In this document: in pieces, positions 24,038 through 34,612 of the stretch
Layout: each line of letters opens with the position of its first letter
Position numbering within the stretch: the first letter of the stretch is position 1
Origin: Dawidia cretensis
GTDB taxonomy: Bacteria > Bacteroidota > Bacteroidia > Cytophagales > Cyclobacteriaceae
Direction of reading: 5' to 3'
NCBI RefSeq assembly: GCF_018598175.1
Contig: NZ_JAHESE010000025.1
Location: forward strand, 1 to 64,000
Length of the DNA: 64,000 nt
Made by a program: the position numbers and the translations under genes
Notes under the pieces: generated by a model
The model's input: only the letters and a program-made list of their open reading frames with translations
Told to the model about the DNA's origin: nothing
The model's database searches: none

Positions 24038-24045
24038 TTAAAAGA

Positions 24046-24072
24046 AAGAGGCTGTCAAACGGACAGCCTCTT
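24046..24072. terminator. Bidirectional rho-independent terminator between convergent genes
   Basis: AAGAGGCTGTC-aaacg-GACAGCCTCTT: 11-bp perfect stem, 5-nt loop, A/T-rich flanks on both sides. Confidence 0.6.
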
Positions 24073-24118
24073 CAAAATACGAACGCCAAAATGGTTACAC
24101 GTTCCTAAAAATGAGAGC

Positions 24119-24910
24119 TTAAAGGCTTCTTCCCAACCCAGCCCAGTCAAACCCGCTATCGGCACGATTATGCTTCAACGCAGGAATTTGCGTCGTAATA
24201 ATCACGGTCGTGCCAGCGATATCGGTCCTGTGATGTTGAGGAATCTCTTGCTTCACCCCTTTTACCATGGTGAATTCAGCACGCTCAAAAAATTCCTGAA
24301 AGGATCGCTTCAACTGGTTAATATTGTTCATGCCGTAGAATAGAACTACCCGGGGGGTATGCTCCTGAATTCTACTCAGTATAGTTTGCACCCGTTGCTG
24401 ATATACCTGTTCCTCGTATAGCTTTCGTGTTTTAAGCATGCTCTTCTGCGGAAGATCGAGCCAGCTATAGTACCAGGCATGGTTGTGTGGACTGGGTAAT
24501 GGATACAATGCGATTAACGCCTCGGAAGCACGTGCGAAATCATTCTTTTGGTAGTGAAGAAGATCCGGAAGCTCTCTGCCCTGATAACCATGCGCAAACG
24601 CGATCAGGTTTTTCCAGATGCCATGCAATACTGCATGGTCACCGAACCTGTAATCGTGGAGGGTGGCGAACAAGTTCGCCCGTGGCCCGTCCGTCCGGAA
24701 GGCTACATGCCGGTATAGGTCACGAAGATCGCACAGCACGGGAGATTCAGCAGGTTTCAGGTTATAGAAATAGTCAAACTTCTCGGCAACCTCTTCCGGC
24801 AGATCACCGCCACCTTCCTCATAGCCTACAAACCACACCGGTGCGTCCCAGGATCCGAATCCATAAAAGCTCTCAAGCCAGTATTGGAGGGTGTGCTCTT
24901 TTATCAGCAT
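24119..24910 (-). CDS. Hypothetical protein, last gene of the PspA-flotillin-giant ATPase operon
   Basis: 263-aa ORF 26 bp downstream of the giant ATPase gene on the same strand. No recognisable family. Confidence 0.5.
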   Translation of the reverse strand: MLIKEHTLQYWLESFYGFGSWDAPVWFVGYEEGGGDLPEEVAEKFDYFYNLKPAESPVLCDLRDLYRHVAFRTDGPRANLFATLHDYRFGDHAVLHGIWKNLIAFAHGYQGRELPDLLHYQKNDFARASEALIALYPLPSPHNHAWYYSWLDLPQKSMLKTRKLYEEQVYQQRVQTILSRIQEHTPRVVLFYGMNNINQLKRSFQEFFERAEFTMVKGVKQEIPQHHRTDIAGTTVIITTQIPALKHNRADSGFDWAGLGRSL

Positions 24911-24936: not shown

Positions 24937-27900
24937 TCATGGCTTTCCCTTGATTGCCCTTGCAATCGCCTCGAGATGCTCGTTAAACGAGCTCAACTGT
25001 ATCAGCATCTGACCCGACGTGTCGCCTTCGCTCAGCATTCCAAATTTGTTATTCTTCACAAAGATCTCCTTAATTTGCCTCCAGCGCGCTCCTTCCTGAT
25101 CGTTGAGGAAACCTGCAATTTCTTTTAGTCGAAGCAGGTTAGCTTCTGCATCCGATGTCAGCGTTTGAGATTCACCGTCGTAATGGGAAAGAATCAATGT
25201 ATTCACTTCGTCAGGATTCATAAGCGGCACAATTTTACCCGCCATCTTATTCATATTCCGATATGACCCTTGTAACTTGAAAGCAGGCTCGGTACGGTAT
25301 GCATCTTTCATGGCAGCGCTCGCAATATACTGTTGATTCACGAGCATCACCACATCCCGAATCCGGATGATGTTCCTGAGCACCGCGATGGCGTCGTCTA
25401 TCTCCTGCCGGTTATAATTTCCTTCCAGTTCCGGCAACAGCTCACCGTTCGTTTCGACATAACTGATAAGCTTGTACAAATCATCAAAACTGCGACTACT
25501 GATATGCTGCAAATACCGATTCTCCGCCACGCAGTTTTCAATCAAACTCAATCTGAACAGTTGATCGGTATTGCCGATCACATCTCCCAGGTTATAGACA
25601 TCGGCACGGTTCGCCAACATGTCCGGGATCTTAAACTGCTCGCCACTCTCTGTATATGGGTTGCCCGCCATCACCACGCAGAAACGTTTTCCGCGCAGAT
25701 CATAGGTTTTGCTTTCGCCTTCAAAAATGCCATCCATTTTCCGCTGACCGTCGGCGAGGGATATGAACTTCTGTAGAAACTCCGGACTACAATGCTGGAT
25801 GTCGTCGACATACAACATCACGTTATCGGCCATTTCAAAGGAAAGGTTTATTTTCTTGAGCTCTGCCCGCGCGCCTGAAGTCGTCGCTTCCTGCGGATCA
25901 ATGGATGTGATACTGTGCCCGATGGTTGGACCATTGATTTTCACAAAGTGAAGCCCCATCGTTTTTGCCAGGTACTCCATCAACGTCGTTTTACCATAGC
26001 CCGGTGGCGATACCAGCAGCAACATTCCCATCCGCGCAGTGCGTTTATCGTCGCCTGCCGCACCGATCTGCTTGGCCAGGTTGGCGCCGATCAACGGAAA
26101 GTATACCTCGTTAATGAGACGATTACGCACAAACGAGCTCAATACTTTCGGCTCCAGCTCACTGATCTTCAATTGCTGGCGATATTCCCGTACCAATTGC
26201 TCTTTGAGCTGATTAAAAGAAGTAAATGCAGGAACAACCGCGTCAAAATAACTGCGCATCTTCCTCAGAAAGTGATGAAAGTTTAAGGTGTATTGACCAT
26301 CACTTTGTATCACTGCGTGTGTGCCTTTTAAGGCAACAAGATCAATTGAGTCCGCCGCCGCTCTTTCGCGGTAGGCATGATCCTTAAAAAGAAGCAGGCA
26401 AGCTGCTTCATCGACATATTGCACGTCGCCGGCATCCGGTTGCGTTTGAAGAAATGCGTGCAGCCAGCTTTGGATTATATAAAATCGCTCTGCAGTATCG
26501 AAACCCGAGCTATTTACCTCTTGTAAGAACAATCCTGCCCTTTTCTGTGCGTGCAAATATCCTTCGAACGCTTTTTTGAGATGCAGCGCCTGTTGACTGC
26601 CCGTAAAAAACTTACCGGTTGAAAGCTCTAGATACAAATACTGCGCTACATCCTTTGCGCCTACTGATTCATACACAATTTTCGACTGCAAGAATCGCGA
26701 TGATAATTCTTCTTCTACGAAACTTGCACGCTTGCTTTGAGGAAAACTCTCTTGTATGGAATAAGCAGCGGTAATCAATTGTTGAAGCTTATTCTGTGAA
26801 GCCTCGTCCAGGCCAAACCAGAACAGTTGAGCGGCCACACGAACGGCAGGAGAAAACTGCAGGATGCCTAATTCTGCCTGAAGTTTTTTAAGTCCCTGGT
26901 AGATAACCGCAGCATCGGTATTATGAACGCCTTTGAGATATGCGGCTGCATAATCACGTTCTGTCCGGTCATTCAGAAAAGTTTCATAGCTCCAGGGCTC
27001 ATGATGCTGGAGACTTTCGAGATAAGTTTGATACGCAAGATATTCAGAACGATAGATCTCCCTGTTTTCAGATATCAATTCCTGCTCCCAGATGGCTCGA
27101 TGCTGATAGAGCGATTCGGCGGCCACCTGCTTATAGAAGCTGGTCCCCAGGAGATGAAAATATAAGCTCTCATTTCTGCGAATGATTGTCAGATCCAGCA
27201 CTTGCTTATTGACAACAAACTTGTAATTACCGAGTGCAATTATATTTTGGCCATCAACAAAAAGGTCCGTCTTGTCTTTGAGATTTCGCAAAGCAGTTTC
27301 CTGTGCGACTTTCACAAGATTCTCCAGGTTTTCTGCTTTCGCTACGTCGCCCAAATCTTTTAAATCGCCCATCAGGTTACGTACCTTGTCTACCATCAGG
27401 TCCGTAGAAAAGAATGCGTAGATACTTTCCTTATCGTTAAACGACTGGGCTTTATTCTCGATGTTTTTTAGCACCCGCAAGCCAACCTGTTCCAGTGCTG
27501 TTGTGCGCTTGTTCAGCTGCGCGATCAGCATCTCCTTCTTGCCATTGAAGGCTTTGATTACTTCGTCGCGCTTATCTGAAATTTTAAGAATAAATTCATC
27601 AAAGTCGGCAAACTTGCTCTCGAGGTCTTCCACCTGAATACTCACCTTCGTAAAATATTCTTCACACTTTTCAGGCGATGTCGAAAGATCAAGGAAATTT
27701 ACAATGCTTTGATCCAGTAATGTAAGCTGCGCATAAAACTGACCTGTTGACTCCTGCGTTCTCAATGCGGTGGTGATACGTACCACTTCTGCTTTCACTT
27801 CGTTCAGTGATGCAAAAATCAGTGAGATCTTTTCAACGATGCGCGTGGTTTGCGTCGTGTCTTCAATTTTCAGGCTGTTCAGAATATCGATAAGCATTTC

Positions 27901-29778
27901 CAGTCCATTGGAAATCTCTTTTATCGCCAATTCTACGGGCTGAGCGTCTATCACTTTCGCAACACCGCTCGCGGCTTTCCTGAGCGCAGCAACTTTTGCC
28001 TCATACGGCGCCAGCGCCTCCTCTTTCAATAAAAAAGCAACGGTATCCTGTGAAAGTGAGCTATTATATTGCGCGAGCGTCTCTTTCAGTTCCTGAACCG
28101 CATTCGTGTCAATATACCGAACGTTCTGCAGATCGATAACAGCACCCTGCGTACTCCTCGTTGCCGCAAGCAGGTTTACAAGTTGATCCAGTGACGTGAT
28201 GGTCGCCCCTTTTATGTCGACCACCAGCTGGTCCACTCGCTTTTGCGTCGCCACGAGATTGTCCTTCGCGTGCTGGCGCTGCGTTTGCACCTTGGCAAAC
28301 TCATCTATCGCGGTGTTTGCAATATTCCGGATGTTGGTCAGTGGAGTCGCGAGATCGAATGTGCCTTCATCCTTTAACCAGAAATAGGAATCGACAATAT
28401 CGTTCGCACGTTTATGTACGTCCTCGTAAAGATCTTCGTAGCTATCTTCCTTTTGTAAGAGCTGTATGATCTCCTGGCTTTCGCTCATCGCACTTACGAT
28501 ATCCTTATTGCCGATCTTATACAGCACATTATTGCTCATCGCTGTATTTTCCTGAAGCGTAGCGGTATACGGGGTTTGCCAGATTTGCACCTGGTGATGC
28601 CTTACCGCTTCATTCTCGGATCTAAAATATACAAGCATCCCATCATTAAATACCGTAAAGCCATTACAGATGATCGGCGTCTCCACCTTTTGCGCAATCA
28701 TATTGTATGACATTAACACATAGGTATTTGTCTGCTTCTGATAGAATACATAGAGAAAGTCCTCACCATTAGGAGAAGCAACGCTACTATTAAATTCCAG
28801 CTCCGATACCTGTAGCTCGAATATTTTGTGTTCTCCATTTTGCAGGTAATAACCATTCGGAAAGATTATCCCCTGGTTGTCCGGCAGCAGAACGCCGGCG
28901 TCGAGCAGACTATTGATGGGAAGAACCTGTTTCGTCCGCACATTAAAAACGTAGGCGCGAAAGCCCTCCCCATAGGGCTTTATTTTGACAGGGATGAGAT
29001 TCCCGAGGTCTGCATAGTGATATTCCGCATCATCCAGTTGCTGGTCTTTATTCGAGACGGGATCAGAATAAACTCCTTTCCCGGAATCTGTATTGTTTTC
29101 AACCTTAAACGTAATATCACCATGAAGCGCCTCTATGAAAACTTTGTCTAAAATCGAGATATGCGGATATAAACCCAGTCGGCGATTGTTGAGGTCGGTT
29201 TTAATCCAATCGAATTCATGTTGTGGCGCTTTTTTTACTTCATGAATACTTCTGTCGTCGACATAGACCAGCTTCTCGTCTTTGATCAACCATTTAAAAG
29301 CTTTTCGGTCGTCAGGGCTTTTGCTGGTTTGAAAAACCATGAACAGATGGTTCTCTGTCTTGACAAATTTGGCAAAGATTGAATCCCGGTAGTACTTGTA
29401 AAGATTGCTGAAGTCCGTGATAAAATTCTCGTCTTCAATTAATGTAAGCGGCTCCGGGCCGAAATGATCACCCGTGAATTTATAGATACTGAAAACATCG
29501 CTGAGCTTGATGTTTTCACGCAAACCAAAATGGACGTTGTAACCGAAGAGAGTAAGATCACCAAATGCCATAATACCACGCGGTACGCCGCTGTTGACAG
29601 TGGTAATACGTTGGTTGGCGATCAGCTGAAATCCCGTGGAATTGAATATAACCTTGCGGGCATCATTCAGCCTGGCCAGTCTTTCGATTAAATTCAACCG
29701 TTGCTCTTCCAGGCGCTTCCGGATGATCTCATATGTCCCGGAATCCAATCCAATATTTGTATTTTCAGTACCTGCCAT
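24937..29778 (-). CDS. Giant (1613 aa) MoxR/dynein-related (AAA_5-type) AAA+ ATPase with a ~1250-aa N-terminal extension of unknown function
   Basis: Walker A LLLVSPPGYGKTT encoded near nt 26014. Walker B MLYVDDIQH. MoxR-like sensor region VVMAGNPYTESGEQFKIPDMLANRADVY. Long predicted coiled-coil segments upstream of the AAA module. Confidence 0.75.
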   Translation of the reverse strand: MAGTENTNIGLDSGTYEIIRKRLEEQRLNLIERLARLNDARKVIFNSTGFQLIANQRITTVNSGVPRGIMAFGDLTLFGYNVHFGLRENIKLSDVFSIYKFTGDHFGPEPLTLIEDENFITDFSNLYKYYRDSIFAKFVKTENHLFMVFQTSKSPDDRKAFKWLIKDEKLVYVDDRSIHEVKKAPQHEFDWIKTDLNNRRLGLYPHISILDKVFIEALHGDITFKVENNTDSGKGVYSDPVSNKDQQLDDAEYHYADLGNLIPVKIKPYGEGFRAYVFNVRTKQVLPINSLLDAGVLLPDNQGIIFPNGYYLQNGEHKIFELQVSELEFNSSVASPNGEDFLYVFYQKQTNTYVLMSYNMIAQKVETPIICNGFTVFNDGMLVYFRSENEAVRHHQVQIWQTPYTATLQENTAMSNNVLYKIGNKDIVSAMSESQEIIQLLQKEDSYEDLYEDVHKRANDIVDSYFWLKDEGTFDLATPLTNIRNIANTAIDEFAKVQTQRQHAKDNLVATQKRVDQLVVDIKGATITSLDQLVNLLAATRSTQGAVIDLQNVRYIDTNAVQELKETLAQYNSSLSQDTVAFLLKEEALAPYEAKVAALRKAASGVAKVIDAQPVELAIKEISNGLEMLIDILNSLKIEDTTQTTRIVEKISLIFASLNEVKAEVVRITTALRTQESTGQFYAQLTLLDQSIVNFLDLSTSPEKCEEYFTKVSIQVEDLESKFADFDEFILKISDKRDEVIKAFNGKKEMLIAQLNKRTTALEQVGLRVLKNIENKAQSFNDKESIYAFFSTDLMVDKVRNLMGDLKDLGDVAKAENLENLVKVAQETALRNLKDKTDLFVDGQNIIALGNYKFVVNKQVLDLTIIRRNESLYFHLLGTSFYKQVAAESLYQHRAIWEQELISENREIYRSEYLAYQTYLESLQHHEPWSYETFLNDRTERDYAAAYLKGVHNTDAAVIYQGLKKLQAELGILQFSPAVRVAAQLFWFGLDEASQNKLQQLITAAYSIQESFPQSKRASFVEEELSSRFLQSKIVYESVGAKDVAQYLYLELSTGKFFTGSQQALHLKKAFEGYLHAQKRAGLFLQEVNSSGFDTAERFYIIQSWLHAFLQTQPDAGDVQYVDEAACLLLFKDHAYRERAAADSIDLVALKGTHAVIQSDGQYTLNFHHFLRKMRSYFDAVVPAFTSFNQLKEQLVREYRQQLKISELEPKVLSSFVRNRLINEVYFPLIGANLAKQIGAAGDDKRTARMGMLLLVSPPGYGKTTLMEYLAKTMGLHFVKINGPTIGHSITSIDPQEATTSGARAELKKINLSFEMADNVMLYVDDIQHCSPEFLQKFISLADGQRKMDGIFEGESKTYDLRGKRFCVVMAGNPYTESGEQFKIPDMLANRADVYNLGDVIGNTDQLFRLSLIENCVAENRYLQHISSRSFDDLYKLISYVETNGELLPELEGNYNRQEIDDAIAVLRNIIRIRDVVMLVNQQYIASAAMKDAYRTEPAFKLQGSYRNMNKMAGKIVPLMNPDEVNTLILSHYDGESQTLTSDAEANLLRLKEIAGFLNDQEGARWRQIKEIFVKNNKFGMLSEGDTSGQMLIQLSSFNEHLEAIARAIKGKP

Positions 29779-29908: not shown

Positions 29909-31936
29909 CTACAACTTCCTGTTAGACAATCCCAAACTATTTGCCAGGTTGGCGAGGTTCAGCAGCGATGGACGATCCTCTTCCGAGCTGTTCTGTTGCA
30001 TTTTCAGAATCAGACTTGAAATGGTCAGGTTTTTAATATCGTTCGTGGTGATATTGTACTTATCGGCAAAGTCGCGGATGCGACCTAACAGATCACCACC
30101 ATTTCCTCCTTCACCCAACAGCGCAGTTTTGATCTGTGTTGCATTTTCACTTTCGTTGATCAACCGATCGAACCCTTTCGCGTTCGAAATCTGGTTGACA
30201 ATATTCTGGAAAAACATCGTTTCACCACCCACAATATCAATCTTGGCAGACTTCAACGCTTCTCCCAATATCGTGGCCTGTGCATCGGCAATATGCTTCT
30301 GAATATCGATCTGCGCGAGCGCGATCTCCTTTTCTTTCGTGAGGAGCAACTTAAACTCTTCATGATCTTTTCCAACAGCATCCAGCTTCTTCATCGCTTC
30401 TGCTTTTTCCTGGATGCCGGCAGCTTCCGCCAGAGCCTTTTCTTTCGTCACTTCAGCTTCCGATAAACCTTCCTTCCGTTTCGCTTCTGCAATTTTCTCA
30501 ATCACCGTCGCGTCAACGATACCTTGTCTTTCTACCGCTTCTGCTTTGGCTATCATAACTTCTGCTTCAGAAAGCCCCCTTGTTGCTTCCTCACGTGCCT
30601 GGGCGTCGGCCAGTATTTTACGTGCTTCTGCCTGTTTCACCGCGGCTTCTTTTTTAGCGTCCGCATCAATCACCAATTGTTTTGCTTTTTCCTCCGCGGC
30701 CTTCTTTTCAGCCTCTGCAGCCTTTACGGTATAGATCAGTTTTTCCTCGGCCTGTTGGCTGGCCTGTGTGATCCCTACTGTCTTATTACGTTCTACCTGA
30801 CGGAAAGCCTCCAGGTCTTTTACCCCCTGTTGCTCTTCCACCACACCTTTTTCAAGGCGCACACGGTCGCGAATGACATCCTGGATGTTCTTACGTTCCA
30901 CTTCCACTGTTTTCTCCTTTTCAATTTGAGCCAGTGTTACGATCTTTTCGCGCTCGGTAGCTTCCAATGCGCGATCCTTTTCTACACGCTCAGTTTCCAC
31001 CGCCTCTGTGCGTTGCTTGTTCTTTTCCGCAATGATGATCTGACGTAACTTATTCTCCTCCTGTACGGCAAGAGATTCCTCCGTTTTGATCCGAACCGTC
31101 TCAGATTTTAGTCTTTCCTCTTCTCTTACCTTAATGATCTCGGCTTGTTCGCGTGAGCGCACATTATCAATTTCTCTACGCTGTTTCTCTTCTTTTTCGG
31201 CCATCTGGCGTTCCAATTCCAGGATGGATTCACGGGCCTCGACGTCTTGCTTCTTGATCACTCTTTCTTCCTCTCGTTTGATCAGATTGGCCTTTATGTT
31301 CTGCTCTGCTGTAAGCTCGGTGATCTTCTTAATACCCTGTGAATCGAGGATGTTTTGTGGGCTGAGAAATTTCATCTCTGTCTGCTCGAGGAAATCAATA
31401 GCGCAGTCGTCGAGGATATAACCGTTCAGGTCGGTTCCTATAATATTCAGGATTTCAGTTCTGAACTCGCGACGCGCTTCATACAACTCGATAAAATCGA
31501 ACTTCTTACCTACCGTTTTTAACGCTTCCGAGAATTTCGCTTCGAAAAGATTGCGAAGTGTTTCCGTATCGCTGGCTCTTTCCGTACCGATAATCTGGGC
31601 TACGTTCAACACATCATCAGCGTTCTTATTTACGCGAACGAAAAATGCCACTTTGATATCAGCACGGATATTGTCTTTACAAATAAGACCATCTTGCTCC
31701 AGGCGGTCGATCTGCAGTTTCTTTACGGAGATATCCATGATCTCCATTTGGTGGAGAATAGGAATGACATACATTCCTTTATTAAAAGCAACGTGACCAC
31801 CCCCCACGCCCGTGCGCACAATTGCTTTTCCTTGCGGAATCTTTTTATAGAAAGTCGCAAAGGCAAAGAGAACAATGAAAATAAAGAATACTATTCCACC
31901 AATAAATATTAAACTAATGCCGCCAAGTAGGTCCAT
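29909..31936 (-). CDS. Flotillin-family SPFH/band-7 protein (YqiK-like)
   Basis: N-terminal TM helix, PHB/SPFH domain and a very long EA-rich coiled coil. Confidence 0.85.
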   Translation of the reverse strand: MDLLGGISLIFIGGIVFFIFIVLFAFATFYKKIPQGKAIVRTGVGGGHVAFNKGMYVIPILHQMEIMDISVKKLQIDRLEQDGLICKDNIRADIKVAFFVRVNKNADDVLNVAQIIGTERASDTETLRNLFEAKFSEALKTVGKKFDFIELYEARREFRTEILNIIGTDLNGYILDDCAIDFLEQTEMKFLSPQNILDSQGIKKITELTAEQNIKANLIKREEERVIKKQDVEARESILELERQMAEKEEKQRREIDNVRSREQAEIIKVREEERLKSETVRIKTEESLAVQEENKLRQIIIAEKNKQRTEAVETERVEKDRALEATEREKIVTLAQIEKEKTVEVERKNIQDVIRDRVRLEKGVVEEQQGVKDLEAFRQVERNKTVGITQASQQAEEKLIYTVKAAEAEKKAAEEKAKQLVIDADAKKEAAVKQAEARKILADAQAREEATRGLSEAEVMIAKAEAVERQGIVDATVIEKIAEAKRKEGLSEAEVTKEKALAEAAGIQEKAEAMKKLDAVGKDHEEFKLLLTKEKEIALAQIDIQKHIADAQATILGEALKSAKIDIVGGETMFFQNIVNQISNAKGFDRLINESENATQIKTALLGEGGNGGDLLGRIRDFADKYNITTNDIKNLTISSLILKMQQNSSEEDRPSLLNLANLANSLGLSNRKL

Positions 31937-31993: not shown

Positions 31994-32665
31994 TCAAACG
32001 ATATTGGAGAGGTTGATCTCTGGGACCACCAGGTAAAATTTTTTATCGGCCGATTCGCCGGCAATCATCACTTCCGAATCATATTCGATCGAGTCGCCTG
32101 TTTTGCTTTGTACGTTGATGCGGATAATATCGTGCTCTATCTTTACTTCCGCTGCTCCGATCTTATCGCCGGAAATGGTACTTCGCATCCGGGCAATCCT
32201 TCCCAGAAGCTCCTGAGGTTCTTCACCATTATACCCCATAGCATGATAAACTTTGACCAACGGCCTGGTGGCATACCGCGTAATGACATACGCGACAAAA
32301 AAAGCAGGTATAAGAACGAATACAGATTTCCAGCCCCAGCTTCCCAAACCCAACGCCACCGATGACGTTAACGTAATGATCCAGGCAAGGAATTTAAAAA
32401 CGGAATATACTACCATGAAGGGCACTTTCCCGATGTTCACAAATTCGAGTGCCTTCTGCAAAAAAGGCTTGTCTGCCACGGCATCATCCGTGTCAGTATC
32501 AACATCCGTATCTACATCTGCCCCGTGCACGGGAAAATCGCTATCAACTCCGGAATCTCCAAACAGATCTCCCGCGACGAATGTAGTTATCCAATAAATA
32601 GCGGTTATTCCCGTGAGAATGGTCATGATGGCATTACTCAACGGATGAAACAGCAGGTCTGTCAT
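31994..32665 (-). CDS. NfeD/YqiJ-like membrane protein (flotillin partner)
   Basis: Two to three TM helices, an acidic D/T-rich linker and a C-terminal OB-fold-like beta region. Sits directly upstream of the flotillin gene, as in yqiJK / nfeD-floT pairs. Confidence 0.5.
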   Translation of the reverse strand: MTDLLFHPLSNAIMTILTGITAIYWITTFVAGDLFGDSGVDSDFPVHGADVDTDVDTDTDDAVADKPFLQKALEFVNIGKVPFMVVYSVFKFLAWIITLTSSVALGLGSWGWKSVFVLIPAFFVAYVITRYATRPLVKVYHAMGYNGEEPQELLGRIARMRSTISGDKIGAAEVKIEHDIIRINVQSKTGDSIEYDSEVMIAGESADKKFYLVVPEINLSNIV

Positions 32666-32696: not shown

Positions 32697-33398
32697 TTAT
32701 GATATCCCTAATTTGTCTTTGATCGCCTGAAGGTCTTTCTCAATAGAGAATGAATCGTTTTTTAACAGGCTGTCCAATTCATCTTTCTTACTATTCTTAT
32801 CACGGGATATTTCACCGTAGGCTTTCGAGAGTGCTTCCTGATCTTCTACCTTTGATTTCATACGCTCGAGCATGCCAATTATTCCGTTGCTATCGACATG
32901 GGCCAGTTGTTTGTTTACTTGTACCGTTGCATTGCTAACGTTCAACCTGGTCTTCAACGTCCGCAACTCTTTTTCCCACTTCTCCATATTCTCCTTCAGA
33001 ATTTCGGCATTGCGCTGCATCTCCCTGGAAGATTGCTGCAACGCAACCGCTTGCAGCCCGAGCTCTTCTGACTCTACAGAATATCTTTTATAGAGCGACA
33101 ACGCTTCACGGGCAAGCTCTTCCGCCTTGCCCAGGTCTACCTGCCCGGACTGTGCTTTTTGCATGATCAATATAGCTTTTTCGGCATAACTTTTCGACTC
33201 CTGCTGGCGGTGAAGCTGATCATTTTCTGTGCGAATAGCCAGGGCCTTTACTTTGGCATAGGCCTCCGTTGCTTCTGCAAGATCTGTGCGCAGCTCACGA
33301 AGGCCCTGCTCCGTCATTTTAATGGGATCCTCCATTTTATCGACAGCGGCGTGAATTTCCGCCTGTCCTATTCTGAAAAGCCTTTTGAAAATATTCAT
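32697..33398 (-). CDS. pspA: PspA/IM30 (Vipp1) family protein
   Basis: N-terminal MNIFKRLFRIGQAEIHAAVDKMEDPIKM aligns with the E. coli PspA start [28 protein letters not shown]. All-helical coiled-coil composition. Confidence 0.8.
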   Translation of the reverse strand: MNIFKRLFRIGQAEIHAAVDKMEDPIKMTEQGLRELRTDLAEATEAYAKVKALAIRTENDQLHRQQESKSYAEKAILIMQKAQSGQVDLGKAEELAREALSLYKRYSVESEELGLQAVALQQSSREMQRNAEILKENMEKWEKELRTLKTRLNVSNATVQVNKQLAHVDSNGIIGMLERMKSKVEDQEALSKAYGEISRDKNSKKDELDSLLKNDSFSIEKDLQAIKDKLGIS

Positions 33399-33439: not shown

Positions 33440-33838
33440 TTATAGCTTCGAAAAATCGATGATCTGCTGAGAGAACTCGCTCAATAATAAACCAAGAGAG
33501 TTTAAAGCACTCTCAAATTCATTAAAGTCGATATTCTGAAGCTGCATGGTATAACGGAACAGCACCCGATCGCCTTCTTCGTTAATGACAAAGGCGCCGT
33601 GAATAGTGTCCCTGTTTTTTTGCAGCAGCCTTTTGAACATGTCCATGCTGTCTTCCCGAAAGGAGAAGAGAAACTGCTCCATAATAAGGATAGGAGGCGC
33701 GACGCCAAGGATCAAATTATGGATACCGTCGGATGGATTATCGATCTTGAGAATGCCATGCTGTTCATTCTTATACAGTATTCTGCAATTAAGCCTCCGT
33801 GCGAAATCTTCGATGGTCTCAAAATGGTTCATGAGCAT
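33440..33838 (-). CDS. Hypothetical protein, possibly YbjN-like; first gene of the operon
   Basis: 132-aa soluble protein 41 bp upstream of pspA on the same strand. The YbjN-like call is a weak impression only. Confidence 0.4.
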   Translation of the reverse strand: MLMNHFETIEDFARRLNCRILYKNEQHGILKIDNPSDGIHNLILGVAPPILIMEQFLFSFREDSMDMFKRLLQKNRDTIHGAFVINEEGDRVLFRYTMQLQNIDFNEFESALNSLGLLLSEFSQQIIDFSKL

Positions 33839-33925: not shown

Positions 33926-34612
33926 TTGACAGGAATGACAAAGATTGGCGCCAATATCAAAAAGATCAGAACGACCAAAGGGCTTAGCCAGCAGGCGTTT
34001 GCGGACTTATTTGAATTAACCAGGGGTAACATCTCCTCCTATGAGGAAAACCGGGCGGAGCCGAAAATCGAAACCGTTATACAAATTGCCAATTATTTTA
34101 GCATCCCCCTGCATCAATTTATTACGGAGAATCTCTCCATACACGAAATATTGAAATATAACGGCGATAAGCTGATCGAGGATGAAAATCATATCATAAA
34201 TCTTCAGCTCCGGCAGGTTCCATTCATGAATGATGCCATTTATATGAAATGCTGCTATCAGGAATTGCCATTTAATGATTGGAATAGTTTTCCGAAGCTG
34301 ATCTTGCCGGAGGTAAACAATCACAATATGTTCGCCTTGAGCTTTAATCCCAACATCGCTCGCCACGAATCGCTCCCATCCTATCAAATGAACGACGTAT
34401 TGATTTTCGAAGAGTTAACCCAACAGAATATCCACCTCTGTCAGCACAAAACCGGCCTTTTTACTGCCGAGCGCGAGATCATGATCGGCCAGTATGAAAT
34501 GAAGGACGAAAAAGTTGACCTGGTCTTAAATGATTTCAAGCGGGAGCGATTCGATTTCAAGTCCGCACGGCGATTCTGGAAATTGTTTGCAACCTATCAG
34601 CATGAGAAATAA
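33926..34612 (+). CDS. XRE-family HTH transcriptional regulator, divergent from the pspA operon
   Basis: KIRTTKGLSQQAFADLFELTRGNISSYE Cro/C1-type HTH at the N-terminus. Confidence 0.7.
   Translation: MTGMTKIGANIKKIRTTKGLSQQAFADLFELTRGNISSYEENRAEPKIETVIQIANYFSIPLHQFITENLSIHEILKYNGDKLIEDENHIINLQLRQVPFMNDAIYMKCCYQELPFNDWNSFPKLILPEVNNHNMFALSFNPNIARHESLPSYQMNDVLIFEELTQQNIHLCQHKTGLFTAEREIMIGQYEMKDEKVDLVLNDFKRERFDFKSARRFWKLFATYQHEK

Follow-up and report, generated by a model that had tools for sequence, protein, structure and literature searches.

The window, a stretch of 64,000 nucleotides from Dawidia cretensis, contains the gene for a 1613-residue AAA+ ATPase that closes a conserved flotillin operon, and this ATPase most likely regulates or remodels flotillin/PspA membrane scaffolds at the expense of ATP. 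The reading frame proposed in the initial annotation (24937–29778) was confirmed on the reverse strand with an ATG start, and an NCBI record from Fulvivirgaceae/Dawidia shows 100% identity to its product. The protein has more than 3300 homologues, which are variously named "DNA repair ATPase" (NCBI) and "MoxR-like ATPase" (JGI). End-to-end alignments give 58–96% identity within Bacteroidota and 25–41% outside. Since homologues align over their whole length both within and beyond Bacteroidota, this is a conserved gene and not a chance reading frame. Within the DUF3686-DUF7902-AAA+ family, which is widespread in bacteria, already present in Pfam and computationally described, the protein is an ordinary orthologue. 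Its architecture had been regarded as an unrecognised oddity; in fact hundreds of 50%-identity clusters share the whole arrangement of ~1600 residues, and the operon is already in print (PMC11237479). The possibility had also been raised that the N-terminal region would prove to be a known domain array of a characterised family. This holds for the array, which is indeed on record, but in a family described from computation.

The ATPase is the last conserved gene of an operon that runs in the order CesT-like chaperone, PspA, YqiJ-like protein, flotillin and AAA+ ATPase, with a divergent XRE-type regulator at its head. The features of the locus are:

33926–34612, forward strand: divergent XRE-type regulator, 228 aa (Pfam HTH_19, E 3.8e-11; HTH_3, E 7.3e-11)
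33440–33838, reverse strand: CesT/Tir-like chaperone, 132 aa, encoded first in the operon (Pfam CesT_Tir_1, E 6.4e-47; YbjN, E 1.1e-5)
32697–33398, reverse strand: PspA/IM30, ESCRT-III superfamily, 233 aa (Pfam PspA_IM30, E 2.4e-36, residues 2–228)
31994–32665, reverse strand: putative YqiJ/YuaF-like membrane protein (NfeD-like flotillin partner), 223 aa (weak profile match, position and size)
29909–31936, reverse strand: flotillin (SPFH/Band-7, YqiK type), 675 aa, membrane segment at the N-terminus (BLASTP)
24937–29778, reverse strand: AAA+ ATPase, 1613 aa, the subject of this analysis (open reading frame list, Pfam and homologue alignments)
24045–24073, reverse strand: strong terminator-like hairpin with a 12-bp stem and T-run, beyond a non-conserved gene of 263 aa

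The adjoining flotillin gene, already recognised in the initial annotation, lies directly upstream of the ATPase gene. Its product matches E. coli YqiK at 30% identity across 459 residues (BLASTP, E 1e-47) and aligns end to end at 37% identity with the ATPase's neighbour in the distant locus L084, a protein that is itself Band_7-positive in Pfam; the Pfam Band_7 model gave no match to the window flotillin. The 223-residue protein is provisionally assigned as YqiJ/YuaF-like following PMC11237479. It scores 18.7 bits against YqiJ_N (E 0.0021), below the cutoff of 23, and shares 29% identity with the equivalent gene product in L084 (E 7e-13). BLASTP found zero pairwise similarity to E. coli YqiJ, and a PDB search returned no match. 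The regulator joins an N-terminal HTH_3/HTH_19 domain to a C-terminal domain of ~130 residues, and its gene is labelled 'cHTH+Protease' in the supplementary table of PMC11237479. The hairpin probably ends the transcription unit. The 263-residue gene beyond the ATPase does not count as a sixth member of the operon: it is missing at that position in 70 of 72 related loci. The genes flanking the operon are ordinary metabolic genes, and Pfam detected no VWA partner gene in the operon or its flanks.

The same operon was described in PMC11237479 (mSystems 2024), which proposed roles in sub-membrane dynamics. The 'beta-propeller + coiled-coil + AAA+ ATPase' operons of that study agree with the window operon in domain architecture, the order of genes, the divergent HTH regulator and the phylum, and their example from Dokdonia donghaensis (around ANH61663.1) shows no essential difference from it. 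The present analysis adds the core unit, conservation statistics, invariant motifs, and split and AAA-only variants. Related loci were sought with Bacteroidota-specific patterns, so that 80 of 80 came from Bacteroidota, and linkage was counted in the 72 with sufficient upstream flank. Distant contexts were found separately, by a representative-protein search and from the contigs encoding those proteins. Five of them are full-length: L083, L084, Proteus mirabilis, Stenotrophomonas maltophilia and a Fibrobacterota genome.

The complete arrangement, from the XRE gene through CesT, PspA, YqiJ and flotillin to the ATPase, occurs in 59 of the 72 Bacteroidota loci; 12 hold YqiJ, flotillin and ATPase alone, and 1 is disrupted. 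The regulator is present and divergent wherever the five-gene operon occurs (59/59). The CesT-like and PspA genes each keep their position in 59/72 loci, the YqiJ-like gene is found in 71/72, and the best conserved of all the module's genes is that for flotillin, at a median identity of 70%. Distant relatives (25–36% identity) preserve the same order of a gene of ~200–225 residues, a flotillin of ~660–730 residues and the ATPase in all five full-length contexts. Membrane-stress genes lie near some of these loci, namely PspA in L084, LemA and TPM in Proteus, and TelA in Stenotrophomonas. The cross-phylum core is therefore the YqiJ-like protein, flotillin and the ATPase, with PspA and CesT as a Bacteroidota add-on. 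Because 12 Bacteroidota loci and all distant loci are without PspA/CesT in the operon, PspA is not a universal substrate. Gene linkage is evidence of a shared process and is silent on which protein is the substrate. We give an even chance to the proposal that the ATPase belongs as a subunit to a conserved module for scaffolding and stress at the cytoplasmic membrane.

Identity to the ATPase follows taxonomy, at 82–96% in Cytophagales, ~69–82% in Chitinophagales and 58–62% in Sphingobacteriales, Flavobacteriales and Bacteroidales, a pattern that would fit a vertically inherited housekeeping or stress function. Such inheritance is unlike that of patchy, fast-evolving defence islands. A membrane-acting anti-phage or abortive-infection system, which a large multi-domain ATPase with membrane partners might call to mind, is accordingly very improbable: 58–96% identity, with gene order and regulator fixed, is maintained across five Bacteroidota orders, and the neighbours beyond the operon are those metabolic genes. 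A PADLOC match to mad8 (E 8.9e-5, 20 bits) is weak and confined to the P-loop. PADLOC-DB 2.0 and PHROGs contain no real match to the operon proteins, the former yielding P-loop and coiled-coil noise only (mad8 at 20 bits, JetC at 16 bits).

The NCBI name and the Pfam description of DUF3686 instead imply a DNA repair ATPase, a reading that is almost certainly wrong. Only these database names speak for it, together with weak matches of the P-loop to models of RuvB and clamp loaders, of which the RuvB models score 20–23 bits against cutoffs of 282–299, over the P-loop only. Pfam and fold searches found no nuclease, helicase or DNA-binding domain, and every conserved neighbour is a membrane protein. 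Literature searches gave no support for the name, and found no paper on DUF3686/PF12458 and none that pairs "DNA repair ATPase" with flotillin. Searches of PADLOC, PHROGs and NCBIfam returned P-loop noise only. There is nothing in support of either a DNA-repair or a phage-defence role.

The order of domains in the AF2 model is propeller, helical rod, helical domain and, at the C-terminus, the AAA+ module. The parts ahead of the AAA+ module, all on the reverse strand, are:

28381–29691, reverse strand: DUF3686 (PF12458) region, residues 30–466 (Pfam E 1.7e-160, full model covered)
27280–28527, reverse strand: helical rod, residues 418–833 (AF2 helices, pLDDT 80–90)
27784–28020, reverse strand: DUF7902 (PF25472), residues 587–665, inside the rod (Pfam E 5.2e-25)
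26389–27240, reverse strand: residues 847–1130, predicted beta unit followed by a helical domain (AF2 and conservation profile)
26182–26370, reverse strand: residues 1137–1199, predicted short beta unit and long connecting helix into the AAA+ module (AF2)

The first 1250 residues had been thought to match nothing, a view superseded by the two Pfam families listed here; their coiled-coil or helical character, by comparison, is supported by AF2, which places helices over residues 418–833. The DUF3686 region comprises an N-terminal helix (residues 13–44) and then an all-beta segment (residues 66–385, pLDDT 55–83) whose predicted secondary structure resolves into about six four-stranded blades, as in a beta-propeller. 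Foldseek matched this region to the propellers of S9 peptidases (probability 0.87–0.97, E ~5e-3). The rod is predicted to consist of antiparallel helical bundles over ~400 residues and is weakly spectrin- or plakin-like; fold searches of it gave nothing beyond generic helical-bundle and spectrin matches. Residues 847–884 form a small beta unit and residues 910–1130 a compact all-helical domain in the AF2 model, with a pLDDT of ~90 across residues 950–1130. In the family conservation profile, invariant residues are concentrated at 904–980, and residues 1000–1150 are the least conserved stretch. Further positions invariant in the family lie closer to the N-terminus, at G220, Q246, E271, R274, E339, D340 and H395. 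Binding specificity cannot be read from the N-terminal region, since its fold-search matches are generic only.

The N-terminal 1200 residues align over their whole length in relatives, with 344 representatives of 50%-identity clusters at E <= 1e-30. In gamma-proteobacteria there are split-gene versions, with the breaks in or just before the region of residues 1137–1199. A split point common to Proteus and Stenotrophomonas, and with it a possible programmed frameshift, was considered and rejected, as the breaks map to residue ~1100 in one case and ~1140 in the other. A stand-alone AAA-only relative also exists, and flotillin is not found near it.

The single AAA+ module does lie at the C-terminal end of this very large protein, as first proposed, with Pfam matches at residues 1253–1377 to both AAA (PF00004) and AAA_5 (PF07728). 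Its features are:

25579–26034, reverse strand: AAA+ alpha/beta core, residues 1249–1400 (motifs and Pfam)
25984–26010, reverse strand: Walker A, SPPGYGKTT, residues 1257–1265
25792–25818, reverse strand: Walker B, MLYVDDIQH, residues 1321–1329
25600–25668, reverse strand: sensor-1 Asn to putative Arg finger, AGNPYTESGEQFKIPDMLANRAD, residues 1371–1393
24940–25578, reverse strand: enlarged helical lid and C-terminal tail, residues 1401–1613 (AF2 helices, pLDDT 70–95)
25252–25275, reverse strand: LQGSYRNM, residues 1502–1509, invariant, candidate sensor-2 motif (invariant columns)

The Walker B string YVDDIQ was correctly read in the initial annotation and forms part of the longer motif given here, but the Walker A string GPPGYGKTT is absent from the protein, which has serine in place of the first glycine. 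The module is by far the best-conserved part of the ATPase. SPPGYGKT and DDIQH are invariant across the family, with Asp at the usual position of the catalytic Glu, and sensor 1 is followed by a single invariant Arg (R1391), where the classical AAA clade (Vps4, p97, FtsH) has paired arginines in its second region of homology. Other lineages have variable and far longer tails, their proteins reaching 2036 residues. AF2 models the core with low confidence (mean pLDDT 62.7).

The module had been described as MoxR/dynein-type, a label that is only partly supported by profile and motif comparisons. In its favour, AAA_5 scores above cutoff in the subject protein (28.6 bits against 22) and a hairpin is predicted before strand beta-4 in the low-confidence core. 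By eye, the NP..E.G...P..L..R stretch and this hairpin resemble MoxR and other AAA+ proteins with a pre-sensor-1 beta-hairpin, which we take as a presumptive likeness. Against the label, PF00004 scores 35 bits over profile positions 1–109 of 131 and is about equal to AAA_5 in 24 of 24 diverse family members, and the MoxR model AAA_3 scores 15 bits where 27 would be needed, a pattern repeated in all 24. PDB searches, run with the full protein as well as a 24-member AAA+ profile, aligned the P-loop region only (~35–65 residues), to Rix7, NVL, p97, midasin and RuvB alike, and a clade cannot be assigned from alignments so confined.

Compared with the MoxR/AAA_5 proteins RavA, CbbQ and NorQ, the window ATPase likewise has one AAA+ module, AAA_5 above cutoff, a similar stretch from sensor 1 to the putative Arg finger, the predicted hairpin and no aromatic pore loop. 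It differs in being about five times larger, with a 1250-residue N-terminal array and without a VWA partner, and in having DD rather than DE in Walker B, an enlarged lid, AAA_3 below cutoff and PF00004 scoring equally. MoxR proteins are compact, at ~300–500 residues, whereas 1250 of the 1613 residues here precede the module. These comparisons bear on the proposal that the protein is a MoxR-like chaperone or maturation factor for which flotillin is a mere platform, its clients being other membrane complexes that require insertion, cofactor loading or extraction. We consider this quite unlikely. No VWA-domain partner was found in any related locus inspected with Pfam annotation, the profile scores do not single out MoxR, and the conserved genes of the module offer no client beyond flotillin, the YqiJ-like protein and PspA.

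The invariant Asp at the catalytic-Glu position in DDIQH, together with the lack of an aromatic pore-loop motif between beta-2 and alpha-2 on inspection of the sequence, suggests an ATPase that is slow, acts as a switch or needs stimulation by a partner, and not an unfoldase that threads its substrates fast. With Asp-Asp in Walker B, hydrolysis may be very weak, which would be equally compatible with a nucleotide-gated scaffold and with a remodeller. ATP-binding oligomerisation switches are known, NSF-D2 and DnaA being examples. The protein might similarly be a structural tether and no motor, in which the DDIQH module switches oligomerisation upon ATP binding while rod and propeller arms connect flotillin platforms and other membrane components or set their spacing. 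The Glu-to-Asp exchange, invariant across the family, the missing pore-loop motif and the ~400-residue predicted rod all point this way. Nevertheless, invariance extends to the sensor-1 Asn, to the putative Arg finger and to the GSYR sensor-2-like motif, as expected where hydrolysis matters, and DD motifs of the DnaA type still hydrolyse ATP. We regard a pure tether as unlikely.

For the preferred reading, an ATP-dependent regulator or remodeller of flotillin/PspA scaffolds, we envisage the following mechanism. The AAA+ modules would oligomerise, probably as a ring, although the model of the core is of low confidence. Through its propeller and rod arms the ATPase may dock at the cytoplasmic flotillin assembly and, in operons with PspA, also at PspA polymers delivered by the CesT-like chaperone. 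Assembly, disassembly or turnover of the scaffold following envelope damage would then depend on the binding and hydrolysis of nucleotide. The logic would be analogous to that of Vps4 on ESCRT-III, or of FtsH within HflK/C cages. In B. subtilis, PspA needs an SPFH protein for its membrane link (PMC8581546), and the SPFH proteins HflK and HflC are in a complex with FtsH (PMC13220708).

Each of these parallels has its limits. As with Vps4, an AAA+ protein is genetically coupled to a PspA of the ESCRT-III superfamily at the membrane, and helical bundles lie N-terminal to the ATPase. Pfam detected neither MIT nor Vps4_C domains, however, membership of the classical clade is not demonstrable, and many loci are without PspA while flotillin is constant in the loci compared, so that the resemblance is one of functional logic only. 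FtsH-HflK/C and the SPFH-NfeD pairs (QmcA-YbbJ, YqiK-YqiJ, FloT-YuaF) share the theme of SPFH, NfeD-like and AAA+ proteins at the inner membrane. Unlike FtsH, the window ATPase has no protease domain or transmembrane segment, and its flotillin is of the cytoplasm-facing YqiK type; E. coli yqiJK is without such an ATPase. PspF-PspA of Proteobacteria also pairs an AAA+ protein with PspA, but there the AAA+ protein, a sigma-54 activator, carries a DNA-binding domain. Sigma54_activat and HTH domains are absent from the window ATPase in Pfam, and the operon has a separate XRE-type regulator instead.

A 2025 review (PMC7619361) holds that bacteria apparently are without a Vps4-like ATPase. We tentatively raise the possibility, doubtful as it stands, that bacterial membrane scaffolds in many phyla have their missing ATP-driven remodeller in the DUF3686 AAA+ family, an independently evolved functional counterpart of Vps4 that recycles or disassembles cytoplasmic flotillin cages and, where co-encoded, PspA polymers. 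The product name "DNA repair ATPase" is unsupported and should not spread in genome annotation. For the disassembly and regulation of bacterial flotillin assemblies and PspA/ESCRT-III-like polymers, the family provides a concrete candidate, and its occurrence in the tractable Proteus mirabilis and Stenotrophomonas maltophilia makes the remodeller hypothesis directly testable.

The ATPase gene (1613 codons, start ATG) closes an operon whose genes in the window are separated by gaps of 31-130 nt and appear in the following order, with a divergent regulator beyond the first.

33440-33838, minus strand: CesT_Tir_1 protein, first in order
32697-33398, minus strand: PspA
31994-32665, minus strand: YqiJ-like membrane protein, 223 aa
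29909-31936, minus strand: flotillin, directly upstream of the ATPase
24937-29778, minus strand: ATPase, last in order
33926-34612, plus strand: divergent HTH_3 regulator

We counted gene linkage at the 72 Bacteroidota loci whose upstream flank was long enough. All five genes and the divergent regulator are present at 59 of these, only the YqiJ-like, flotillin and ATPase genes at 12 (Myroides, some Dysgonomonas and Flavobacterium), and one locus is disrupted. Within the module, conservation is highest for flotillin (median 70% identity) and next highest for the ATPase (60%). The same order of a gene for ~200-225 aa, a flotillin gene for ~660-730 aa and the ATPase gene recurs in all five readable distant full-length contexts (L083, L084, Proteus mirabilis, Stenotrophomonas maltophilia and Fibrobacterota); other membrane-stress genes lie near three of them, namely PspA (L084), LemA and TPM (Proteus), and TelA (Stenotrophomonas). 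Coupling of the ATPase gene to the flotillin and YqiJ-like genes is invariant, and coupling to PspA and CesT is frequent. The module has a dedicated regulator, is inherited vertically and encodes a strongly constrained nucleotide-binding site. A role in defence is very improbable: it is unsupported by PADLOC and PHROGs and at odds with how the module is inherited.

At seven loci from some Bacteroidales, Sphingobacterium and Apibacter (L016, L018, L020, L023, L053, L062, L064), unrelated lineage-specific genes (1-3 kb) lie between flotillin and ATPase. They encode, for example, a hydrolase, small lipoproteins and a secreted protein of 477-484 aa whose SxxK motif looks beta-lactamase/PBP-like by eye. 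Insertions at this point of the operon are evidently tolerated. A 263-aa ORF (24119-24910, minus strand) in the same orientation begins 26 nt after the ATPase gene ends and precedes the only strong terminator-like hairpin (24045-24073, minus strand). We rejected it as a module member, as Dawidia soli alone shares it at this position (85% identity). Its only further recurrence is at another position in one MAG, and so it appears to be a lineage-specific passenger within the transcription unit. Its protein has no match in Pfam, NCBIfam, PADLOC, PHROGs or the PDB.

The flotillin neighbour of the initial annotation is borne out. The protein has no Pfam match even at E<=10, Band_7 included, but aligns with E. 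coli YqiK (30% identity over 459 residues, E 1e-47) and, over its full length, shows 37% identity to a relative with a Band_7 match. By sequence it is clearly a YqiK-type flotillin. Its orthologues likewise have no Pfam match in precomputed annotations, and domain-based SPFH screens will therefore miss this subfamily.

No motif had been matched in the first 1250 residues of the ATPase, but Pfam finds DUF3686 at residues 30-466 (E 1.7e-160) and DUF7902 at 587-665 (E 5e-25). An AF2 model of residues 1-1200 has a mean pLDDT of 75.7 and a pTM of 0.37, which makes its relative domain arrangement unreliable. The modelled elements and the AAA+ motifs are listed by residue.

13-44: N-terminal helix (AF2)
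66-385: all-beta domain, about six four-stranded blades (AF2)
418-833: helical rod, ~400 residues (AF2, pLDDT 80-90)
847-884: small beta unit (AF2)
910-1130: compact helical domain (AF2, pLDDT ~90)
1137-1199: short beta unit and long helix entering the AAA+ part (AF2)
1257-1265: Walker A, SPPGYGKTT
1321-1329: Walker B, MLYVDDIQH
1371-1393: sensor-1-to-arginine stretch, AGNPYTESGEQFKIPDMLANRAD

The C-terminal AAA+ module is present as annotated, with PF00004 (AAA, 2.3e-8) and PF07728 (AAA_5, 1.6e-6) both at residues 1253-1377. The quoted Walker B and sensor-1 strings also stand, but Walker A begins with S rather than G. In the conservation profile no other segment of the family is nearly as conserved as this module. 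Of 71 diverse full-length relatives, 70 have SPPGYGKT and DDIQH unchanged, the sole exception being a frameshifted or aberrant sequence. The sensor-1 Asn (AGNP) is invariant too, as are the putative arginine finger R1391 and the putative sensor 2, LQGSYR. Walker B is unusual in carrying Asp where the catalytic Glu is expected; precedents are DnaA (DDIQF) and NSF-D2 (DDIE), whose ATPase activity is slow or switch-like. Between beta-2 and alpha-2 the module lacks an aromatic pore-loop motif. PDB profile alignments of the AAA+ region reach the P-loop region only, and an AF2 model of residues 1151-1613 has a weak core (mean pLDDT 62.7) with a predicted hairpin before beta-4. PF00004 and AAA_5 score about equally in all 24 family members tested, AAA_3 fails, and no VWA gene occurs at any locus inspected, in the window or among related loci; "MoxR-like" therefore denotes resemblance, not membership. 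A MoxR-like chaperone that serves other clients and uses flotillin as a platform is accordingly quite unlikely. The initial observation was otherwise correct, and its interpretation partly right.

An NCBI protein from Fulvivirgaceae bacterium PWU5 (Dawidia) matches the ATPase with 100% identity. More than 3300 homologues were scored in a word-index search, named "DNA repair ATPase" at NCBI and "MoxR-like ATPase" at JGI. Pfam itself describes DUF3686 as "ATPase involved in DNA repair"; such database names are the sole support for a DNA repair role, which we consider extremely improbable. With residues 1-1200 as query, exhaustive HMMER searching of 1.84 billion cluster representatives matched 1135 proteins, 344 of them reaching E<=1e-30. 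Many have lengths of 1590-2036 aa and can be aligned from end to end at 25-41% identity, so it is the whole architecture, not DUF3686 alone, that is conserved as a unit. The named members belong to Bacteroidota, Myxococcota, Fibrobacterota, Actinomycetota, Verrucomicrobiota, Acidobacteriota, Calditrichota and, within the gammaproteobacteria, Proteus, Providencia, Budvicia, Stenotrophomonas and Xanthomonadales.

Several variants were seen. Niabella spp. (Chitinophagaceae; P0121) have a full-length member with just 40% identity to the window ATPase, against 69-82% for other Chitinophagaceae, which suggests a second divergent lineage or horizontal replacement within Bacteroidota. In Proteus mirabilis (L085, 6591-11524) and Stenotrophomonas maltophilia (L086, 5529-10933), two ORFs together make up the ATPase, the first carrying DUF3686 and DUF7902 (1139 or 1193 aa) and the second the AAA part (507 or 610 aa). 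The AAA ORF is read in the -1 frame and has a 10-nt overlap with its predecessor in both species; the split points differ (window residue ~1100 versus ~1140) within the least conserved linker. Each version is found in several assemblies, and either frameshifting or independent gene fission could account for the splits. A Saprospiraceae MAG (L089, 10001-11767) encodes a stand-alone 588-aa AAA+ relative (~66% identity in that region) with neither DUF3686 nor a flotillin gene nearby, and many AAA-only matches (400-630 aa) may be similar proteins, or fragments.

Exactly this operon was described in mSystems 2024, with abbreviated operons lacking PspA being more widespread; a supplementary table includes the Dokdonia donghaensis neighbourhood, in which the gene equivalent to the regulator is a divergent "cHTH+Protease" gene (PMC11237479). 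The ~130-aa C-terminal domain of the window regulator has no Pfam match. Regulated proteolysis may induce the operon, should this regulator prove to be a self-cleaving repressor of the LexA/CI type. With the family in Pfam and the operon in print, the ATPase is already known as a genomic entity, and the window protein is an ordinary orthologue of a catalogued family; literature searches found no experimental work on it.

We propose that the ATPase would oligomerise via its AAA+ module, that its propeller and rod arms would engage the cytoplasmic flotillin assembly, plus PspA polymers where present, and that nucleotide turnover would control scaffold assembly or disassembly after envelope damage. 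Precedents are SPFH-dependent recruitment of PspA to the B. subtilis membrane (PMC8581546), FtsH within HflK/C (PMC13220708) and SPFH-NfeD complexes. A nucleotide-gated tether that performs no mechanical work is conceivable but unlikely. The family is a worthwhile candidate for an ATP-driven remodeller of flotillin/PspA scaffolds because, according to a review, bacteria apparently have no Vps4-like ATPase (PMC7619361). Such a remodelling role, if true, would be of considerably greater interest than the ATPase as a discovery.
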